Part shown: piece after piece, positions 8,286 to 15,851 of the stretch | Layout of the letters: every line of letters starts with the position of its first letter | How positions within the stretch are numbered: the stretch's first letter is position 1 | NCBI GenBank assembly: GCA_963721805.1 | Contig: CAVRJY010000001.1 | Location: 1,440,001 to 1,504,000, forward strand | From: Nitrospirota bacterium | GTDB taxonomy: Bacteria; Nitrospirota; Thermodesulfovibrionia; Thermodesulfovibrionales; JdFR-86 | Direction of reading: 5' to 3' | DNA length: 64,000 nucleotides | Program-made: the position numbers and the translations under genes | Notes under the pieces: model-generated | The model's input: the letters and a program-made list of their open reading frames with translations, nothing else | The model's database searches: none | Told to the model about the DNA's origin: nothing

Positions 8286-9518
8286 TTACGAGCTATTTAA
8301 GGGGTCTGCAACGAGCATTCCCCCATCGAGGCCGACAATCGCTGCCGTGACCACGCGGCCGCGGCAATAATCCCCGCCCGCAACCCGGACTTTCAAGTAA
8401 TTGTCCGATGTTCCGGTGGAGGCGCCGCGCCCGTCGGCTCTCTCTATAAGAATGGCAAGCGTTTGGCCGAGTTGCAACTTGCGATAACCCTGTTTCTTGG
8501 CATCAGATATCGCTCTGAGCTCGGAGGTCCTGCGGTTTCTCATTGCGCCGCCTACGGAATCCTTGATCTTAGCGGCATCTGTGCCGGCCCGTGGGGAGAA
8601 CGGAAAGACGTGCATATAGGTAAATGGCAAATCCTTCAACAGTTTCACGGTGTTACGGTGCATCTCCTCGTCCTCGGACGGGAACCCGGCTATCACGTCC
8701 GTCCCCAGCGCGATCGCGCCGAGCCTCCCGGTGACCCGCTCGACGGTCTGTCTGAACTGACGAGTGTCATACCGCCGCCGCATCTGGCGCAAGATTTCAT
8801 CGTCCCCGGCCTGAAGCGGGAGGTGCAGGTGCCTGCATATCCGGGGATCGGCTAGCAACTCAAGGAGCCGGTCGTCGATCTCCGTAACCTCTAGCGAGCT
8901 GAGTCTGAACCTTGCCCCGCTGGTGCCCTTGAGCAGCGTCTCGATCAGGTCGGCTAATTTCACTTTATAATCAAGCCCATACTGGCCGAGGTGGATGCCC
9001 GTGAGCACGATCTCCTCAAACCCGGCCTCTATTGCCCGCGATGCCTCGGCTACCACGGCCTCGAGCGCAACGCTCCTGGAGCGGCCCCTGGCGGCCGGGA
9101 TCACGCAGTAGCTGCATGAGTTGTTGCAGCCGTCCTGGACCTTGAGCGCATACCTGCTACGGTCGCCAATAGATAAAGTGTTACATTTATCATTATCGAT
9201 AAACTCAGCGATAGATAGCATTTTATCCTTATTGCTGACGATCCGCTCAACCCCGCCGATACGAAGGATCTCATCGGGGTTGAGCTCGGCGTAGCAGCCG
9301 GTCGCGATCACGCGACCGCCCGAGCGCGTGGCGCGCCTGATCAGCTGCCGGGACTGGTAATCCGCCTTGTTCGTGACGGTGCAGGTGTTGACGATGCAGA
9401 AGTCGGGGTGCTCGTGGATATCGACGATCTCGTGGCCCGAGGCAGAGAGTTCGGCACGCATGCGGCTCACCTCGGCCTGATTGACCTTGCATCCGAGGGT
9501 GAGGAGCGCGAACCTCAT
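8286..9518 (-). CDS. mtaB: tRNA t6A methylthiotransferase
   Basis: Starts MRFALLTLGCKVNQAE; NTCTVT, KVQDGCNNSCSYCVIP radical SAM motif, EIVLTGIHLG. Confidence 0.92.
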   Translation of the reverse strand: MRFALLTLGCKVNQAEVSRMRAELSASGHEIVDIHEHPDFCIVNTCTVTNKADYQSRQLIRRATRSGGRVIATGCYAELNPDEILRIGGVERIVSNKDKMLSIAEFIDNDKCNTLSIGDRSRYALKVQDGCNNSCSYCVIPAARGRSRSVALEAVVAEASRAIEAGFEEIVLTGIHLGQYGLDYKVKLADLIETLLKGTSGARFRLSSLEVTEIDDRLLELLADPRICRHLHLPLQAGDDEILRQMRRRYDTRQFRQTVERVTGRLGAIALGTDVIAGFPSEDEEMHRNTVKLLKDLPFTYMHVFPFSPRAGTDAAKIKDSVGGAMRNRRTSELRAISDAKKQGYRKLQLGQTLAILIERADGRGASTGTSDNYLKVRVAGGDYCRGRVVTAAIVGLDGGMLVADPLNSS

Positions 9519-9519
9519 C

Positions 9520-10820
9520 TCAGAGAGGCAACCTGCCGTCCAGGGAGTGACGCCTGGCGCGGACGATCTCGACGTGGACGGTCTGGTTGATAAGCGCGGG
9601 GTCGCCCGGGAGGTTGACGACCTTGTTGGTGCGGGTGCGGCCGGTAAGCATAGCGGGGTCGGTCTCGCTCGGGCCCTCGACGAGCACTTCGAGCACCGAG
9701 CCGACGAGCGGGATGTTAATCTCGAGCGTGATAGCATCCTGAAGCTCGAGTATCTCGCCCAGCCTCGCGGACGAGACCGCCTCGTCGAGCTGGCCATCCA
9801 TAGTGGCGGCCTTGGTGCCCGGCCGGGGTGAGTACTTGAATGCGAATATGCCGTCGTACCGGACCTCGCGGAGCATACGCACGGTGTCTTGGTGGTCCGC
9901 GTCCGTCTCGCCGGGGAACCCGGCTATGATGTCGGTCGTGAGGGCGATACTCGGCACCCTGGCCCGGAGTCGCCTGACCTTGTCGAGGTATGCCTCGGCG
10001 GTATACCCCCGGTTCATTAACCGCAGTATGCGGGTCGAGCCGGACTGCATCGGCAGGTGCAGGTGCTCGCAGAGCTTCGGAAGCTCGGCTATCGCGTCGA
10101 TGAGCGCATCCGAGAGGTCGCGGGGGTGAGAGGTTACGAACCTCACGCGCTCGATCCCCCCTACCCGGTCTATCGCCCTGAGCAGGGAAGGGAAGTCCAG
10201 GTCGCTCTTGTATGAGTTGACGTTCTGTCCGAGCAGCGTCACCTCTTTGCATCCGTCGCGACCCAGGGCCTCGATCTCGACGATGATGCTCCGCAGACGG
10301 GCGGCTGCGCTCGCGGCCGCGCGTGTATGGCACTATGCAGTAGCTAGCAGAAGTTGTTGCAGCCGTACATGATCGAGACCCATGCGCGCGCCCTATCCTT
10401 CCGGCTGACCGGAAGCTCCATCAGCGCGATCTCGGGATTGTCCTCGACCGCTATGCCGGTCGTGGCCGCAAGCAGCCCCGGCAGGGTATGGAGGTTCTGG
10501 GGGCCGATCACGTAGTCCACGACGCCCTCGACCGACTGAAACAGCTTGTCGCCCATCTGCTGGGCTATGCAGCCGGCGGCGACGACCTTGAGATCGGGGC
10601 GCTGCTTCTTGATGGCCTTGAGGCGGCCCAGTTCGCTCATGAACTTCTGTTCGGCCTTCTGGCGGATGGAGCAGGTATTGAAGACTATAATGTCGGCATC
10701 CTCGTATGAGCCGGTCTCGGTGTGGCCCTCGTTCATTAGCAACCCGGCCATCTTTTCGGAATCGTGGACGTTCATTTGGCAGCCGAAGGTATGGATGTGA
10801 AATCGTTTCCCGTTACTCAT
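9520..10820 (-). CDS. miaB: tRNA i6A37 methylthiotransferase; two apparent single-base frameshifts near 10345 and 10290
   Basis: TFGCQMNVHDSE, NTCSIR, GCNNFC-(shift)-YCIVPYTRGRERSR-(shift)-TLLGQNVNSY, FKYSPRPGT and TRAM domain across three frames. Confidence 0.9.
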
Positions 10821-11088: not shown

Positions 11089-11885
11089 ATGATCCACTGG
11101 ATACGAGACCACAGGCGCGCGGAACTAAGAAAGCGGCCGTTCCCGGCTGAATGGGAGGCGATAGTGCGCCGAAACGTGGCGCACTACTGCGTGCTGGACG
11201 ACGCGGAGCGCGCCGAACTTCAGGCGATGATGCAGGTATTCATCGAGGAGAAGCACTGGGAGGGCTGTGGCGGCCTTGAACTCACCGAGGAGATGAGGTG
11301 ATCATCGCGGCGCAGGCCTGCCTGTTGCAGCTCGGGCTAGCGCATGACTATTACCGCAATGTGCAGTCGATCCTTGTCTATCCCTCGACCGTGGTGCCGC
11401 CGGAGTATCACCCCGGGGTGTTCGAGCGGGTGGACGGCCCGGTGGCCTCTCCGGTTCCCTTATTAGGTCAGGCATTCAGCCAGGGGCCGGTGATACTGGT
11501 CTGGGACGCGGTCTTGCGCGGTGCGCGCCACCCGGAACAGGGGCATAATCTTGTCTATCATGAGTTCAGCCACAAGCTCGACATGCTGGACGGTGCCGCT
11601 GACGGCACGCCGCCGATAGCGGACAAGGCCCAGTTCGCGGAGTGGGTGGTGGTGTGCTCCAGAGAGTTCCTGCGGCTTAGGGGCCTTGCCGCCAAGGGAC
11701 ATAAGACGTTCCTCGACTCATACGGCGCTACAAACGAGGCCGAGTTCTTCGCGGTCGCGACTGAGGAGTTCTTCGACAGGCCGCTTGCACTTAAAGAACA
11801 TGCCCCGGCGCTATACCATGTCCTGAGCGCCTACTACCGCCAAGACCCGGCGGGACGCGTCAACCGCACCTGTCCCATTAAGTAG
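11089..11885 (+). CDS. MtfA-family (peptidase M90) zinc-dependent peptidase; one frameshift near 11298
   Basis: EGCGGLE..IAAQACLL, ILVYP, NLVYHEFSHKLD, YGATNEAEFFAVATEEFF, YYRQDP; two ORFs joined by one indel. Confidence 0.85.
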
Positions 11886-12032
11886 TTGGTGATGTTAATA
11901 CGCTAACTCAAAAAATCTTCAACATTTTTTTCGAGCCAAGACATGCAAGCTCGGAAATGTGCTAGATCATCATCAGATATATTCTTAGCGTGTGCGTCAA
12001 TCCTATGTTTATTTATAACCTTCATCTTTAAC

Positions 12033-12628
12033 GAAAACCATGCCAGTATGCCCCGTGGCTTGCCACGGGGATGAATGGCATCCCTGCCGGGGGGATGTAA
12101 GGGGGGCTGGAAGTCCCCCTTTCCCGCCGAGGCAATTGCGGGCTATCATGAGGCATGGGGTTACGCAGGACGAGTCACGCTGTATATGACACCGGGTACC
12201 ATCTGGTATGGTGTCCTAAGTATCGCAAGAGACTGTTCGCGCAAAGTTACATGCGCGAGCGGTGCGCGGAACTTTTCAGGGAGATAGCTGAAGAGTATGA
12301 ATATGAGATAGTGGAGATGGAAGTGGCGGAGGACCATGTGCATATATTTCTATCGTTCCCGCCACGGTACTCGATAGGGGTGGTGGTCAGAACCCTGAAA
12401 AGTATCAGCGCCCGTGAGCTGTTCAAGCAATACCCATCGCTGAGGCAAAGACTATGGAAGGGTGAGCTGTGGGAGGATGGGTACTTTGCGCGGACAGTCG
12501 GGGACAGCTTGACCTCGGAAATGATCCGCAAATACATACGCGGCCACAGAGCAGAGAAGCAATTGCCTGCGCAGCTGGACTTATAGCTGCGCCACGGATG
12601 CCCCGTGGCTTGCCACGGGGAGCTTCAC
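12033..12628 (+). mobile_element. IS200/IS605-family insertion sequence (tnpA only, 596 bp)
   Basis: Identical subterminal hairpins CCCCGTGGCTTGCCACGGGG at 12051-12070 and 12601-12620; follows TTTAAC, ends TTCAC; no target duplication; ends ambiguous by 2 bp. Confidence 0.9.
12155..12586 (+). CDS. tnpA: IS200/IS605 Y1 (HUH) transposase
   Basis: YHLVWCPKYR, DHVHIF (HUH), LWxxGYF, catalytic Tyr in KYI. Confidence 0.95.
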   Translation: MGLRRTSHAVYDTGYHLVWCPKYRKRLFAQSYMRERCAELFREIAEEYEYEIVEMEVAEDHVHIFLSFPPRYSIGVVVRTLKSISARELFKQYPSLRQRLWKGELWEDGYFARTVGDSLTSEMIRKYIRGHRAEKQLPAQLDL

Positions 12629-14651
12629 TCAAAATCGCTAAGATCTTTGCCGAATATGTTTTTGAAGGTCGGCCATTCTTTTGAAATAATATTTGTCAAA
12701 TCTCGAAAGTAAATTTCACAAATATTGGGGTCGAATAAATCCTTATAAGAAATTGCTTGATATTTCTTTGATCTAGGTTCGGCATATATTTTTAAGACAT
12801 TTGCTTTTGCTTTATTTTGACCTAATTGTGCTAAGAGTTGTGATTTGATTATTTTCCTGATTTTGGGTTCAATAAGATTTCTTCTCTCGGAAATCTCACT
12901 AATTTTTTCTTCTTTTGTTAGTTTCATTTTTTTAAATTTATTTTTCTTAAGGAGGTATTTGTTAATTGCATCAATTCTAAAATCATATTGTCCGCGCTGA
13001 TTCTTCTCAATAATGCCATATCCTATTAAGTGATTAGTATATTCAGGTGAATTTTCAGCTAAGGTATGGAAGAAATCAATGTCGCCCAGAGCTAGTTGTT
13101 TTAACATTTCGTATTCGTCAGGATAATTCCTTTCTAACACGTCTAAAACCATTTCAAAGTAGTCAGAGTGTCTATCCTCGAATTCTTGTTTGCAATTGTT
13201 GTATAAAATTCTGTCAATATTAGTTGGGCGATCTCCATTACTATTCAGATGGATATAACTGCATAGTTGTCTAATTAAGAATGGATGTCCGCCATAGTCC
13301 TCTGTTAATTTTGCAAATAATACATCATCAAATCTCAAGCCCATAAAGTTACCAAGTTTGGAAACCATATCTTGAGTTTGAGATACACCGAATCTTTCAA
13401 TATAATAAAATGGAACTGAGTTATAGATTGGGTTGTCTTTTCCATTAATACTTGATTTTTCGACACACATAGGATTGGTTCCTACTATGCAATATGAAAA
13501 GATATTATCCAGCGCTTGAAAAGATGATCGAATAGACTGCCAGAAGAAAATAAAGTCGTTGTCGTGAGCCCAATGAGTTGATGCTGAAATGTTGAAGGTT
13601 ATATTCTCAATCTCATCGAAAAAAATCAGTATTTGTTTATCGCCAAGTTTTCTATGTAACTTCTGAATATCTTCTCTAAAGAGTATCGCAGCGTTTTTTT
13701 CTGTATATTCATTTTCTGGTCTTATTTCGGTTGACAGATGAAAAGTATCTTTCAATTTGTTAACAATAAAATGCAACGCTTCATTCCATCGTCTCCTATT
13801 AAAAGACGTGTCCTGACAATCAATAACAATTGAAACATCTTCATCTCTAGCAAGCGCTCGCTGGACGCCATAAATTACAGATGTTTTACCTGATTTTCTT
13901 AAGCCAAATAATCCAGAGTTTTCATTGGAGTGATGTCGACTAATTATGTCATGCACAATATCTCTTCTGCCAAAGAAATATAAATCCTTTTTTAGGGCTG
14001 ATTGGAAGGAAAATAGATCGCGCGAAAAAAAATGTTTCTTAAATCTATTAATTAGAAAGAACGAGTCGTCATTGCTTTGAAGCTCATCATAAGAAAAAGG
14101 CACAACAATCTGGAGTTCTTTGTCTTGCATCAATAGGTCAGAGATTTTTGATCCTATATTGTTGTCCTTGCTAATGAAAACACTACAGATTCTTTCAATG
14201 CGCAAAGTCTGATGCATCTTTACTACTTCATCAATTGAATCTAATGCCCTTGGCTCAAAATCAGGATATGCGCTAAAAATAACAATGATTTCCCTTTCGA
14301 TATTAAACATTTCGCTATAATGTTGAGTCGCCTTCATTAGTAGGTAGTTATAGCTGCTTTTTATTTTGTTTCCCATCGTAACTGTACCACTTCTTGTAAC
14401 ATACCATTCTTTAGAAAGCTTACCTATCACTTGTTGCTCCTCTGAAGTAAATCCATACAATTTAACTTGAGGATGACGTCCCGGTACGACGACTCTATTC
14501 ACTTAAAGCCTCCCTATACAAATATTAAATAACAGTATAATACATAGATAATCAATTAAATTCAATATGTATATAATGTCTGAAATAATGCTATTGTTGA
14601 GCAACAAACGGTTTAGTTTCGCTATTCTCCCCATACCACACAACCCCGGAA

Positions 14652-15851
14652 TGTAAAGGTTACGCTCTTACCGGACAGTATCAGGCTGGAAAAAGCAGGC
14701 GGCAGCCAGCCCTTCCATCGGTTAGAATGTTTCACCACAAAACACAGACCGAAGGAGGAAGGGCATGACTGCCAAAGAAAAGATATCACAAGGGAGGCTT
14801 TCAATGCTTCAGCTGGCCGAGAGGCTCAGGAACGTGTCGGAGGCCTGTCGCCGCCGGGGGGTGAGCCGCAGCCAGTTTTACGAGTACAAGCGGGCGTTTC
14901 AGGAGCAGGGGTTTGCGGGGCTCGCGGACCTTCCGCCGATAGCGCGTAGCTGTCCCCACAAGACGCCTGAGGAGGCCCGCAAGCGAGTGATCGAGATGAG
15001 CCTTGCTCACCCCCGGTGGGGGAAGCAGCGCATCTTCGAGCACCTGCTTCTGGAGGGCATATTGGTGCGTCCCTCAACTGTGTATCGCATCCAGGTTCGC
15101 GAGGGGCTGGAGTCGAAGGCCAAGCGCATCCTCCGGCTTGAGCAGGAGGCTAACGGCAAGGAGATCGAGCTAACGGAGGAGCAGGTCAAGCTCATCGAGC
15201 GGGCCAATCCGTGCTTCAGGGAAAGGCATGTGGAGAGCGCATATCCGGGCTATCTGCTCAGCCAGGACACCTTCACGGTGGGCAAGCTCAAGGGCATCGG
15301 GACCGTGTATCTGCAGGCCGTGGTGGACACGTACGGCTCTTATGCCTTCGGCAAGCTGTACACGTCGAAGAGGCCCGAGACGGCGGCCGACGTGCTCTAC
15401 GACCGCGTGCTGCCGTTTTACGAGGACCATGGCATCAGGGTCCAGCATGTCCTGACGGACAACGGCTCGGAGTACTGCGGCAAGCTGCTGCGGCATCCGT
15501 ACGAGCTGTTTCTGGCGCTTCACGACATCGCGCATCGAAGGACGAAGGTGGCGACACCGAGGACAAACGGATTCGTGGAGCGGTTTAATCGCACCATCCT
15601 GGACGAGTTCTTCTCGGAGACGTTCAGGTACCGGTTCTACGCATCGCTCGATGAGCTGCAGTATGACCTCGACCGGTGGCTGCACCACTACAACAACGAG
15701 CGCCCTCACAAGGGCTATCGCAACATGGGCAGACGGCCAATAGAAACTATCGAGCTGGGCAAAAAGCTAAGACAGAAAGCTGAGGAGGAGGCCGCCTGAT
15801 CAGTGCGACCGATGAGATGGAAAACTGTCCGGAGAGCACTGGACTTTTACA
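14652..15851 (+). mobile_element. IS481-family insertion sequence (1200 bp) with 8-bp target duplication
   Basis: TGT...ACA ends; imperfect TIRs TGTAAAGGTTACGCTCTTACCGGACAG / TGTAAAAGTCCAGTGCTCTCCGGACAG; CCCCGGAA at 14644-14651 and 15852-15859. Confidence 0.92.
14765..15799 (+). CDS. IS481-family DDE transposase
   Basis: NVSEACRRRGVSRSQFY HTH; QDTF, TDNGSEY, TNGFVERFNRT, YNNERPH. Confidence 0.95.
   Translation: MTAKEKISQGRLSMLQLAERLRNVSEACRRRGVSRSQFYEYKRAFQEQGFAGLADLPPIARSCPHKTPEEARKRVIEMSLAHPRWGKQRIFEHLLLEGILVRPSTVYRIQVREGLESKAKRILRLEQEANGKEIELTEEQVKLIERANPCFRERHVESAYPGYLLSQDTFTVGKLKGIGTVYLQAVVDTYGSYAFGKLYTSKRPETAADVLYDRVLPFYEDHGIRVQHVLTDNGSEYCGKLLRHPYELFLALHDIAHRRTKVATPRTNGFVERFNRTILDEFFSETFRYRFYASLDELQYDLDRWLHHYNNERPHKGYRNMGRRPIETIELGKKLRQKAEEEAA

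Follow-up and report, generated by a model that had tools for sequence, protein, structure and literature searches.

What was the AT-rich gene that an IS200-type insertion sequence (IS) has cut in two in a Nitrospirota genome, and is that insertion a simple knock-out or a switch? We addressed both questions in a 64,000-nt window (the whole stretch of DNA analysed, from Nitrospirota bacterium GCA_963721805.1, contig CAVRJY010000001.1), and all coordinates below are positions in this window. The broken gene lies on the minus strand and has a GC content of 0.31–0.35, compared with 0.55–0.65 in its flanks and 0.603 in the host genome as a whole, which comprises 2.78 Mb in nine contigs. We favor, at a probability of roughly 60%, the reading that it is a horizontally acquired, stand-alone gene in which a STAND-type ATPase is joined to a HEPN ribonuclease (RNase), that its product would act in trigger-gated abortive defence, and that it has been knocked out here by the IS200 element. 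The positions of the features discussed are collected in Table 1.

The 5’ open reading frame (ORF) of the broken gene consists of 625 codons, starts with GTG at 14502 and ends at 12628, and its translation carries the motifs GLRKSGKTS, FFDEIE and GGHP. Its last sense codon includes base 12628, which belongs to the IS, and its stop codon, TGA at 12627..12625, lies inside the IS. An initial annotation of this DNA, made from the sequence alone, had the coordinates and content of the locus right; we amend it only in that the last sense codon and the TGA are contributed by bases of the IS end. Removal of the element with a script yielded a single 667-residue ORF running over the junction (624 + 43 codons), and since a 597-bp deletion would break this frame, the T that follows the IS belongs to the target. 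The 42 further codons at 12031..11906 (LKMKVINKHRIDAHAK...) align without indels to the C-termini of 12 full-length homologues. Placed as separate rows in the family alignment of 119 homologues, the main piece and the tail abut: column 707 is the last of the main piece and column 708 the first of the tail. Between them the two pieces agree with the family in 61 of the 61 invariant columns and in 96 of the 105 columns with a conservation of 90% or more; most of the remaining nine carry conservative exchanges (Y/F or V/I, for example). Because all 61 invariant residues have been kept, the insertion is the only lesion, as the initial annotation had proposed, and its view that the event was recent agrees with the identity of the IS copies described below and with a tail that has not decayed. 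The IS cuts just before the helix with N-x2-R-x-D-A-H, so that the truncated product loses the last two HEPN helices and still has the N-terminal domain and the ATPase. Inactivated copies exist elsewhere in the family as well, since the gene is split into two ORFs at 3 of 78 homologue loci (L054, L068 and L075).

The inserted element is 596 bp long, and its sole gene encodes a Y1 (HUH) transposase. This TnpA matched Pfam Y1_Tnp (E 6.7e-42, 142.9 bits with a cutoff of 23) and NCBIfam transpos_IS200 (E 1.1e-45, 154.9 bits with a cutoff of 55), and its translation shows HVH and a C-terminal Y. The element has no terminal inverted repeats, as in the IS200 group. Both ends instead share a hairpin with an 8-bp stem and a 4-nt loop, set back from the IS ends by 18 nt on the left and 8 nt on the right, with DNA folding energies of –13.6 kcal/mol (z –4.4) and –9.7 kcal/mol (z –2.0), respectively. 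Six copies are present in the host genome, 100% identical across all 596 bases; five follow TTAAC and one CTAAC, and none of the six has a target duplication. In each of the six copies the base just beyond the right end is a T (12629 in the window, and likewise at L001, L002 and L004–L006), which makes TTAAC^T the effective target; TTAACT accounts for 374 of the genome’s 2,060 TTAAC sites. To our knowledge, a preference on the 3’ side, beyond the insertion point, is absent from the textbook model of IS200/IS605 transposition. In other respects the element resembles IS200/IS605 elements such as IS200, IS608 and ISDra2, which can likewise encode TnpA only, within about 600 bp, have subterminal hairpins, and do not duplicate the target when they insert 3’ of their fixed pentanucleotide, which allows seamless excision. 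The window element, which uses TTAAC (CTAAC in one copy) followed by T, is assigned by its Pfam and NCBIfam families. A second copy (L004; G000:C1:1250385-1253980, IS at 1501-2096) also breaks an AT-rich ORF, with a flank GC of 0.35. This ORF encodes 419 residues across the empty site, its 366-residue downstream piece has HATPase_c and DUF4325 (STAS-like) domains, and it gave no PADLOC match.

We then asked whether the element could be a switch. TnpA proteins of the IS200/IS605 family excise their elements precisely and reseal the donor, and precise excision of this kind, removing 596 bp, would restore the frame exactly. On this alternative the IS200 copy is a genuine, reversible on/off switch, and its excision in a subpopulation would re-arm a defence gene that is costly to keep, a kind of bet-hedging. 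The exact restoration of the frame and the undecayed tail speak for such a switch, the six identical copies indicate an IS that is active now or was so recently, and the element lacks tnpB, which would drive re-insertion at the donor site. The gene also contains just 7 of the genome’s 2,060 TTAAC sites. Measured by density, however, TTAAC occurs at 3.5 per kb in the gene versus 0.74 per kb in the genome, an approximately 5-fold enrichment; moreover, two of the six copies lie in low-GC DNA (flank GC at most 0.41), and the copy at L004 interrupts an AT-rich ORF in the same way. A preference for the AT-rich target TTAAC^T could thus alone have guided the IS into the gene, and target bias together with tolerance of the loss is a sufficient explanation of the insertion. 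Given that the gene has so few of the genome’s target sites, selection for loss of a costly gene may also have played a part. The public reads that contain this DNA amount to one run (6% of words, contigs only, depth about 3–7; no RNA run), in which the IS occurs with flanks that belong to other copies and the gene is represented by a 151-bp fragment. No read or contig of this run joins across the IS, at a depth that cannot reveal rare excision. We regard a reversible switch as speculative and very improbable. The initial annotation had described a toxic product whose gene is held off by a reversible insertion, and the data here support neither the toxicity nor the reversibility. The insertion is an ordinary knock-out of an accessory-type gene, an event that is commonplace among insertion sequences. 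The locus nevertheless shows, cleanly and in nature, how a defence-like gene can be silenced by an element of the seamless-excision type, and the empty junction can easily be sought.

The protein that the gene encoded can be described from its homologues. An AlphaFold2 model of the closest one (P0002, from a 119-row alignment) reached a mean predicted local distance difference test score (pLDDT) of 87.5 and a predicted template modelling score (pTM) of 0.74. In this model the ATPase core is followed by a helical domain with a GxP motif and then by a winged helix, which together form an NB-ARC-like tripartite module. The Walker motifs read GLRKSGKTS and ILIFFDEIE, and their G, K, T, S, D and E residues are invariant in the 119 homologues. 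Foldseek matched the model to Avs3 and Avs4 (PDB 8dgc and 8dgf) at 9e-8 and 1.5e-6. The Pfam STAND models stayed below their cutoffs for the window protein and eight homologues: nSTAND1 scored 17.1 bits, where 27.1 are required, and AAA_35, AAA_14 and nSTAND6 also fell short. The Walker motifs and the structural matches argue for the P-loop, STAND-like ATPase that had been suggested from the sequence.

The N-terminal domain is more elusive. It had no match in Pfam, NCBIfam or PADLOC, and its invariant residues showed no signature of a nuclease, a TIR domain or another effector in Pfam or PADLOC. A TIR-like or PD-(D/E)xK assignment, considered from motifs by eye, was dropped. In a structure search of the Atlas, its fold occurred only at the N-termini of related ATPases or alone in 222-residue proteins, and some of the ATPases that share it carry CSD, Schlafen AlbA_2 or IF2_N domains. 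A feature search of the Atlas with this domain returned no named match, and a word-based search for short relatives gave eight matches, all of them truncated members of the family.

The C-terminal domain (approximately residues 528–667) was folded alone from 57 homologues, with a pLDDT of 93.7, and was predicted to be an all-helical bundle of the HEPN fold. For comparison we used nine PF18731 (HEPN_Swt1) domains that score above the Pfam cutoff, drawn from 201 genomes of the phylum. The hhalign comparison of the C-terminal domain profile (57 sequences) with these nine domains gave a probability of 97.3% and an E-value of 2.7e-11 over 117 columns. Both families have the helix F..L..iI...W..F and the pattern N-x2-R...A-H...D/E-x2-R. 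Direct matches to the PF18731 model itself were below its gathering score of 27.5 bits: two of eight full-length homologues matched, at E 0.0015 (19.2 bits) and 0.028 (15.2 bits), and a search of the host genome for the PF18731 family gave no match. HEPN structures stood at the head of the structural search, and no Foldseek match of the domain model to the PDB reached E ≤ 0.001. In sequence searches of the PDB, the profile of the whole family gave no matches and that of the C-terminal domain only chance-level ones (E about 1). The initial annotation had proposed HHpred and Foldseek runs on the reconstructed protein; for the C-terminal domain, the profile–profile comparison came out in favor of HEPN. 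A predicted homodimer of the HEPN domain scored 0.30, where the mark was 0.42, and weighs on neither side. Taken together, the profile–profile comparison and the HEPN structures that headed the structural search support assignment of the C-terminal domain to the HEPN domains of the Swt1/Abi2 clade, and the R-x3-H motif noticed in the single sequence proved to be conserved throughout the family.

The motif differs in spacing from that of its relatives. In the Swt1-like/Abi2 (AbiD/AbiF) clade, which includes PF18731, PbAbiF (8vz6) and the C-terminal domain of yeast Swt1 (4pqz), it reads R-N-x-x-A-H, whereas in this family it is R-x-D-A-H, that is R-x3-H, one residue shorter and outside the canonical R-x4-6-H range. 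Among the 119 sequences its N and R are invariant and its D, A and H are conserved in at least 90%, and divergent members still have GR[FP]DAH. A second invariant cluster, E-x3-R-R-N-x2-E-x3-R, lies on the first HEPN helix (approximately 12860–12900 of the window, minus strand). It is as strongly conserved as RxDAH and is missing from the nine aligned PF18731 domains; this helix and the Pfam score below cutoff both distinguish the family within that clade.

These motifs bear on an alternative in which the roles of the two end domains are swapped: the N-terminal domain would be the effector, and the HEPN domain would act as a sensor that binds RNA without cutting it. In Avs-type STAND proteins the effector is indeed N-terminal. 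The non-canonical R-x3-H spacing would also suit a domain that does not cut, and the fold of the N-terminal domain precedes related ATPases that bear the nucleic-acid-binding CSD, Schlafen AlbA_2 and IF2_N domains. A non-catalytic RNA-binding sensor role has been proposed for the HEPN domain of eukaryotic Swt1 by Anantharaman et al., 2013 (PMC3710099). Yet five residues of the motif (N, R, D, A, H) and the E/RRN/E of helix 1 are invariant or nearly so over very distant phyla, which fits catalysis better than binding alone, and the N-terminal domain is without any effector signature in the searches described above. We consider the exchange of roles quite improbable and retain the HEPN domain as the putative RNase.

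To place the gene in its genomic context, we called and clustered the ORFs at 78 homologue loci. The largest clusters of neighbours, found at 10 and 8 of the 78 loci, were histidine kinases and ABC ATPases, and both were rejected as partners. No neighbour family is conserved across the 78 loci, so the gene stands alone, in line with the single-gene architecture of the initial annotation. The same annotation had named homologue neighbourhoods as a check on a defence role, and we compared, at 77 loci, the two closest ORFs on each side that were 120 residues or longer with a local control, ORFs at least 7 kb distant at 51 of the same loci, counting PADLOC matches at E ≤ 1e-8. Adjacent ORFs were enriched: 43 of 264 matched (26/130 + 17/134) versus 9 of 140 distal ones (odds ratio 2.8, p 0.005), and 33 of the 77 loci had at least one adjacent match. 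Many matches are generic, including mad3 (ABC ATPases), a reverse transcriptase, and MotB-, PolA-, RtcR- and helicase-like proteins. After these were removed by judgement, the strict list gave 28/264 versus 5/140 (p 0.013), and p was 0.022 once a duplicate neighbourhood and one shared ORF were also left out. Clear defence neighbours, at 20 of the 77 loci, were Dazbog DzbA, Upx, SngAB, type I and type II methylases, a type II endonuclease, AbiEii (twice), PtuB, LeoA, SoFic, PD-Lambda-2_B and several PDC-S candidates.

The enrichment beside defence genes is genuine, though of moderate size, the loci being related and the control local. Against a defence role, PADLOC 2.0 contained no model of a known or candidate system that matched the protein. 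The nearest approach was the candidate PDC-M34B, with weak matches to the window protein (E 5e-4) and to three of eight homologues (1e-3 to 4e-3) that were confined to the C-terminal 100–150 residues of this family. PDC-M34B itself is a profile of 185–192 positions and a separate B protein of a multi-gene candidate system; we found no paper on PDC-M34.

The family is widely and sporadically distributed. A word-indexed search returned 1,549 homologue clusters at E ≤ 1e-3, and among the 119 listed homologues, 118 have 655–693 residues and one has 638. A length of 667 residues, as in the restored product, is usual for these clusters. Among the matches listed, the best homologue is 55% identical, the named sources are Bacteroides, Paenibacillus, Nostoc, Chloroflexi, Sphingobacterium and Methylobacter, and the annotations read only hypothetical or “AAA-like”. 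With one genome per species (185,579 species), 417 stretches from very many phyla encode a relative. We detected no orthologue in 120 other genomes of the window’s order; three weak partial matches there (23–26% identity) were other STAND-like proteins. Plasmids carry the gene in 38 of 72,556 records (18 from Ralstonia, 16 from Klebsiella, 2 from Nostoc and 2 others), and 15 loci lie in IMG/VR viral contigs, some of them proviral, while none of 50,697 GenBank phage records holds a relative. Its sporadic distribution, low GC content, and carriage on plasmids and viral contigs together indicate a horizontally mobile accessory gene. The 16 Klebsiella records, of IncF-type plasmids, label it just ‘AAA-like domain-containing protein’. 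At a locus from Ketobacteraceae (L039), the same pair of IS3-family transposase genes lies on both sides in the same orientation (9048-9917 and 12297-13166), so that the homologue there looks like part of a composite transposon. Genes of mobile elements are common near the homologues; further cases are IS91 at locus L015 and an integrase gene at L021.

Such mobility raises the alternative that the same protein serves something other than phage defence, either as a selfish, addiction-type RNase of plasmids and mobile elements (in inter-element competition or post-segregational killing) or as a stress-response RNase. Of the 38 plasmid carriers, 34 are conjugative or mobilizable. On the Klebsiella pneumoniae plasmid pF13_1 (L101, 46805-48808), the 667-residue gene sits alone amid replication and partition genes and the toxin–antitoxin pairs VapBC and Phd/YefM. 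The lack of carriage in phage records and the 44 of 77 loci without a PADLOC neighbour point the same way. On the other hand, the 78 loci show no cognate antitoxin or conserved neighbour, and the ORFs that do adjoin the gene are enriched for defence models. As far as we know, STAND sensors with nuclease effectors are immune receptors. We judge a non-defence function unlikely and a defence role likely, the latter on account of the sporadic, horizontally transferred distribution, the carriage on plasmids and proviral contigs, and the roughly 3-fold enrichment of PADLOC matches beside the gene.

By analogy with Avs-type STAND sensors and with the NTPase–HEPN nucleases PrrC and RloC, we infer the RNase activity, the trigger and the defence role as follows. 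The protein would stay idle until a trigger, probably derived from a phage, is sensed by the N-terminal domain or by the NTPase module. The trigger would induce nucleotide-dependent oligomerisation, which would pair the HEPN domains into an active RNase, and this RNase may then cut cellular or phage RNA and so abort the infection. Avs3 and Avs4 are likewise single-gene systems with a central STAND NTPase, helical and winged-helix domains and a nuclease-type effector, and they too are sporadic, horizontally transferred and found near other defence genes. They differ in that Avs proteins have 1,500–2,000 residues, carry the effector at the N-terminus and end in a long repeat sensor, whereas members of this family have about 667 residues as in the restored gene, no repeat sensor, a putative HEPN effector at the C-terminus and an unnamed 165-residue N-terminal domain; none of the PADLOC Avs models matched the family. 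A more elaborate version of the defence reading makes the protein a compact, ‘inverted’ STAND immune receptor, with a 165-residue N-terminal sensor and a C-terminal HEPN RNase bearing R-x-D-A-H, encoded at a locus that the IS200 element has turned into a reversible, stochastic on/off device whereby a rare subpopulation is re-armed under phage pressure. Taken as a whole, that version is highly unlikely.

The simpler reading of a knocked-out STAND–HEPN defence gene also finds parallels in the PrrC and RloC anticodon nucleases. These have a comparable architecture, one polypeptide in which an N-terminal P-loop NTPase regulates a C-terminal HEPN RNase, and act in abortive infection. PrrC differs in having an ABC-type rather than a STAND-type NTPase, a type I restriction-modification partner as restraint, and the canonical R-x4-H. 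PrrC is classed as a HEPN protein in PMC3710099, and Table 1 of that paper gives “STAND-ATPase, TPR, S1” as fusion partners of Swt1-like HEPN domains, with Npun_F6454, MED222_16016 and Desac_1927 among the examples, so that this table already predicted the general STAND–HEPN architecture in 2013. The portion of a 2026 Nature survey of bacterial STANDs (PMC13581612) used here contains no description of the family, which its supplements may classify. We found no paper that describes the family or its protection against phages in the literature on Swt1, HEPN, STAND, nSTAND1 and anti-phage systems. We regard the family as a variant, so far uncharacterised, of the known combination of a STAND NTPase and a HEPN effector. 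If its members protect against phages, they would constitute a widespread single-gene STAND–HEPN system missed by the PADLOC models tested, with a reach that includes about 1,500 clusters, 417 stretches over many phyla, and plasmids of Klebsiella and Ralstonia. At 667 residues and without a repeat sensor, the protein would then be a convenient system for studying how STAND NTPases control HEPN RNases, and the family could show whether the R-x3-H variant is catalytic.

Table 1. Positions in the window of the parts of the broken gene and of the element inserted in it.
Feature	Position	Strand	Basis
5’ part of gene, 625 codons	12628..14502	–	ORF and alignment
Ribosome-binding site GGGAGG, 6 nt upstream of GTG	14509..14514	–	Sequence reading
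N-terminal alpha/beta domain, approximately residues 1–165	14008..14502	–	Library searches and predicted structure
STAND/Orc-Cdc6-like NTPase, helical and winged-helix domains, approximately residues 166–525	12928..14007	–	Predicted structure, Foldseek
Walker A, GLRKSGKTS	13879..13905	–	Translation, alignments
Walker B, FFDEIE	13606..13623	–	Translation, alignments
GGHP, GxP-type motif (helical domain), without exception among 119 homologues	13282..13293	–	
First part of HEPN domain (helices before the break), with the invariant E-x3-R-R-N-x2-E helix	12628..12927	–	
Severed 3’ part, 42 codons (last two HEPN helices) and stop codon at 11905..11903	11903..12031	–	
N-K-H-R-I-D-A-H, the family’s N-x2-R-x-D-A-H (R-x3-H), putative catalytic motif	11990..12013	–	
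IS200-type insertion sequence, 596 bp	12033..12628	+	
tnpA, Y1 (HUH) transposase, 143 residues	12155..12586	+	Pfam, NCBIfam
Left-end subterminal hairpin	12051..12070	+	DNA fold
Right-end subterminal hairpin, same stem sequence as left	12601..12620	+	DNA fold
TTAAC target pentanucleotide abutting the left IS end (T after the right end at 12629)	12028..12032	+	

The surroundings of the broken gene contain further disrupted or mobile genes. Adjoining it is a gene for an M90 (MtfA-like) peptidase in two overlapping frames (11089..11301 and 11298..11885, plus strand), which none of 10 genomes from the same family matched with the query used. Upstream of this, a MiaB-like gene is split at 10230-10360 (minus strand) into ORFs 10344..10820 and 9520..10242: an extra base puts a TAG immediately behind the CNNFC of the radical-SAM motif, and approximately 45 nt further on the reading frame is regained. 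The split is a +1/–1 frameshift pair, and the gene could be a pseudogene or the product of an assembly error. Directly upstream of the AT-rich gene itself lies an rve-type (IS481- or IS3-like) transposase gene (14765-15799, plus strand), so that the 2-kb foreign gene is flanked by two different insertion sequences.

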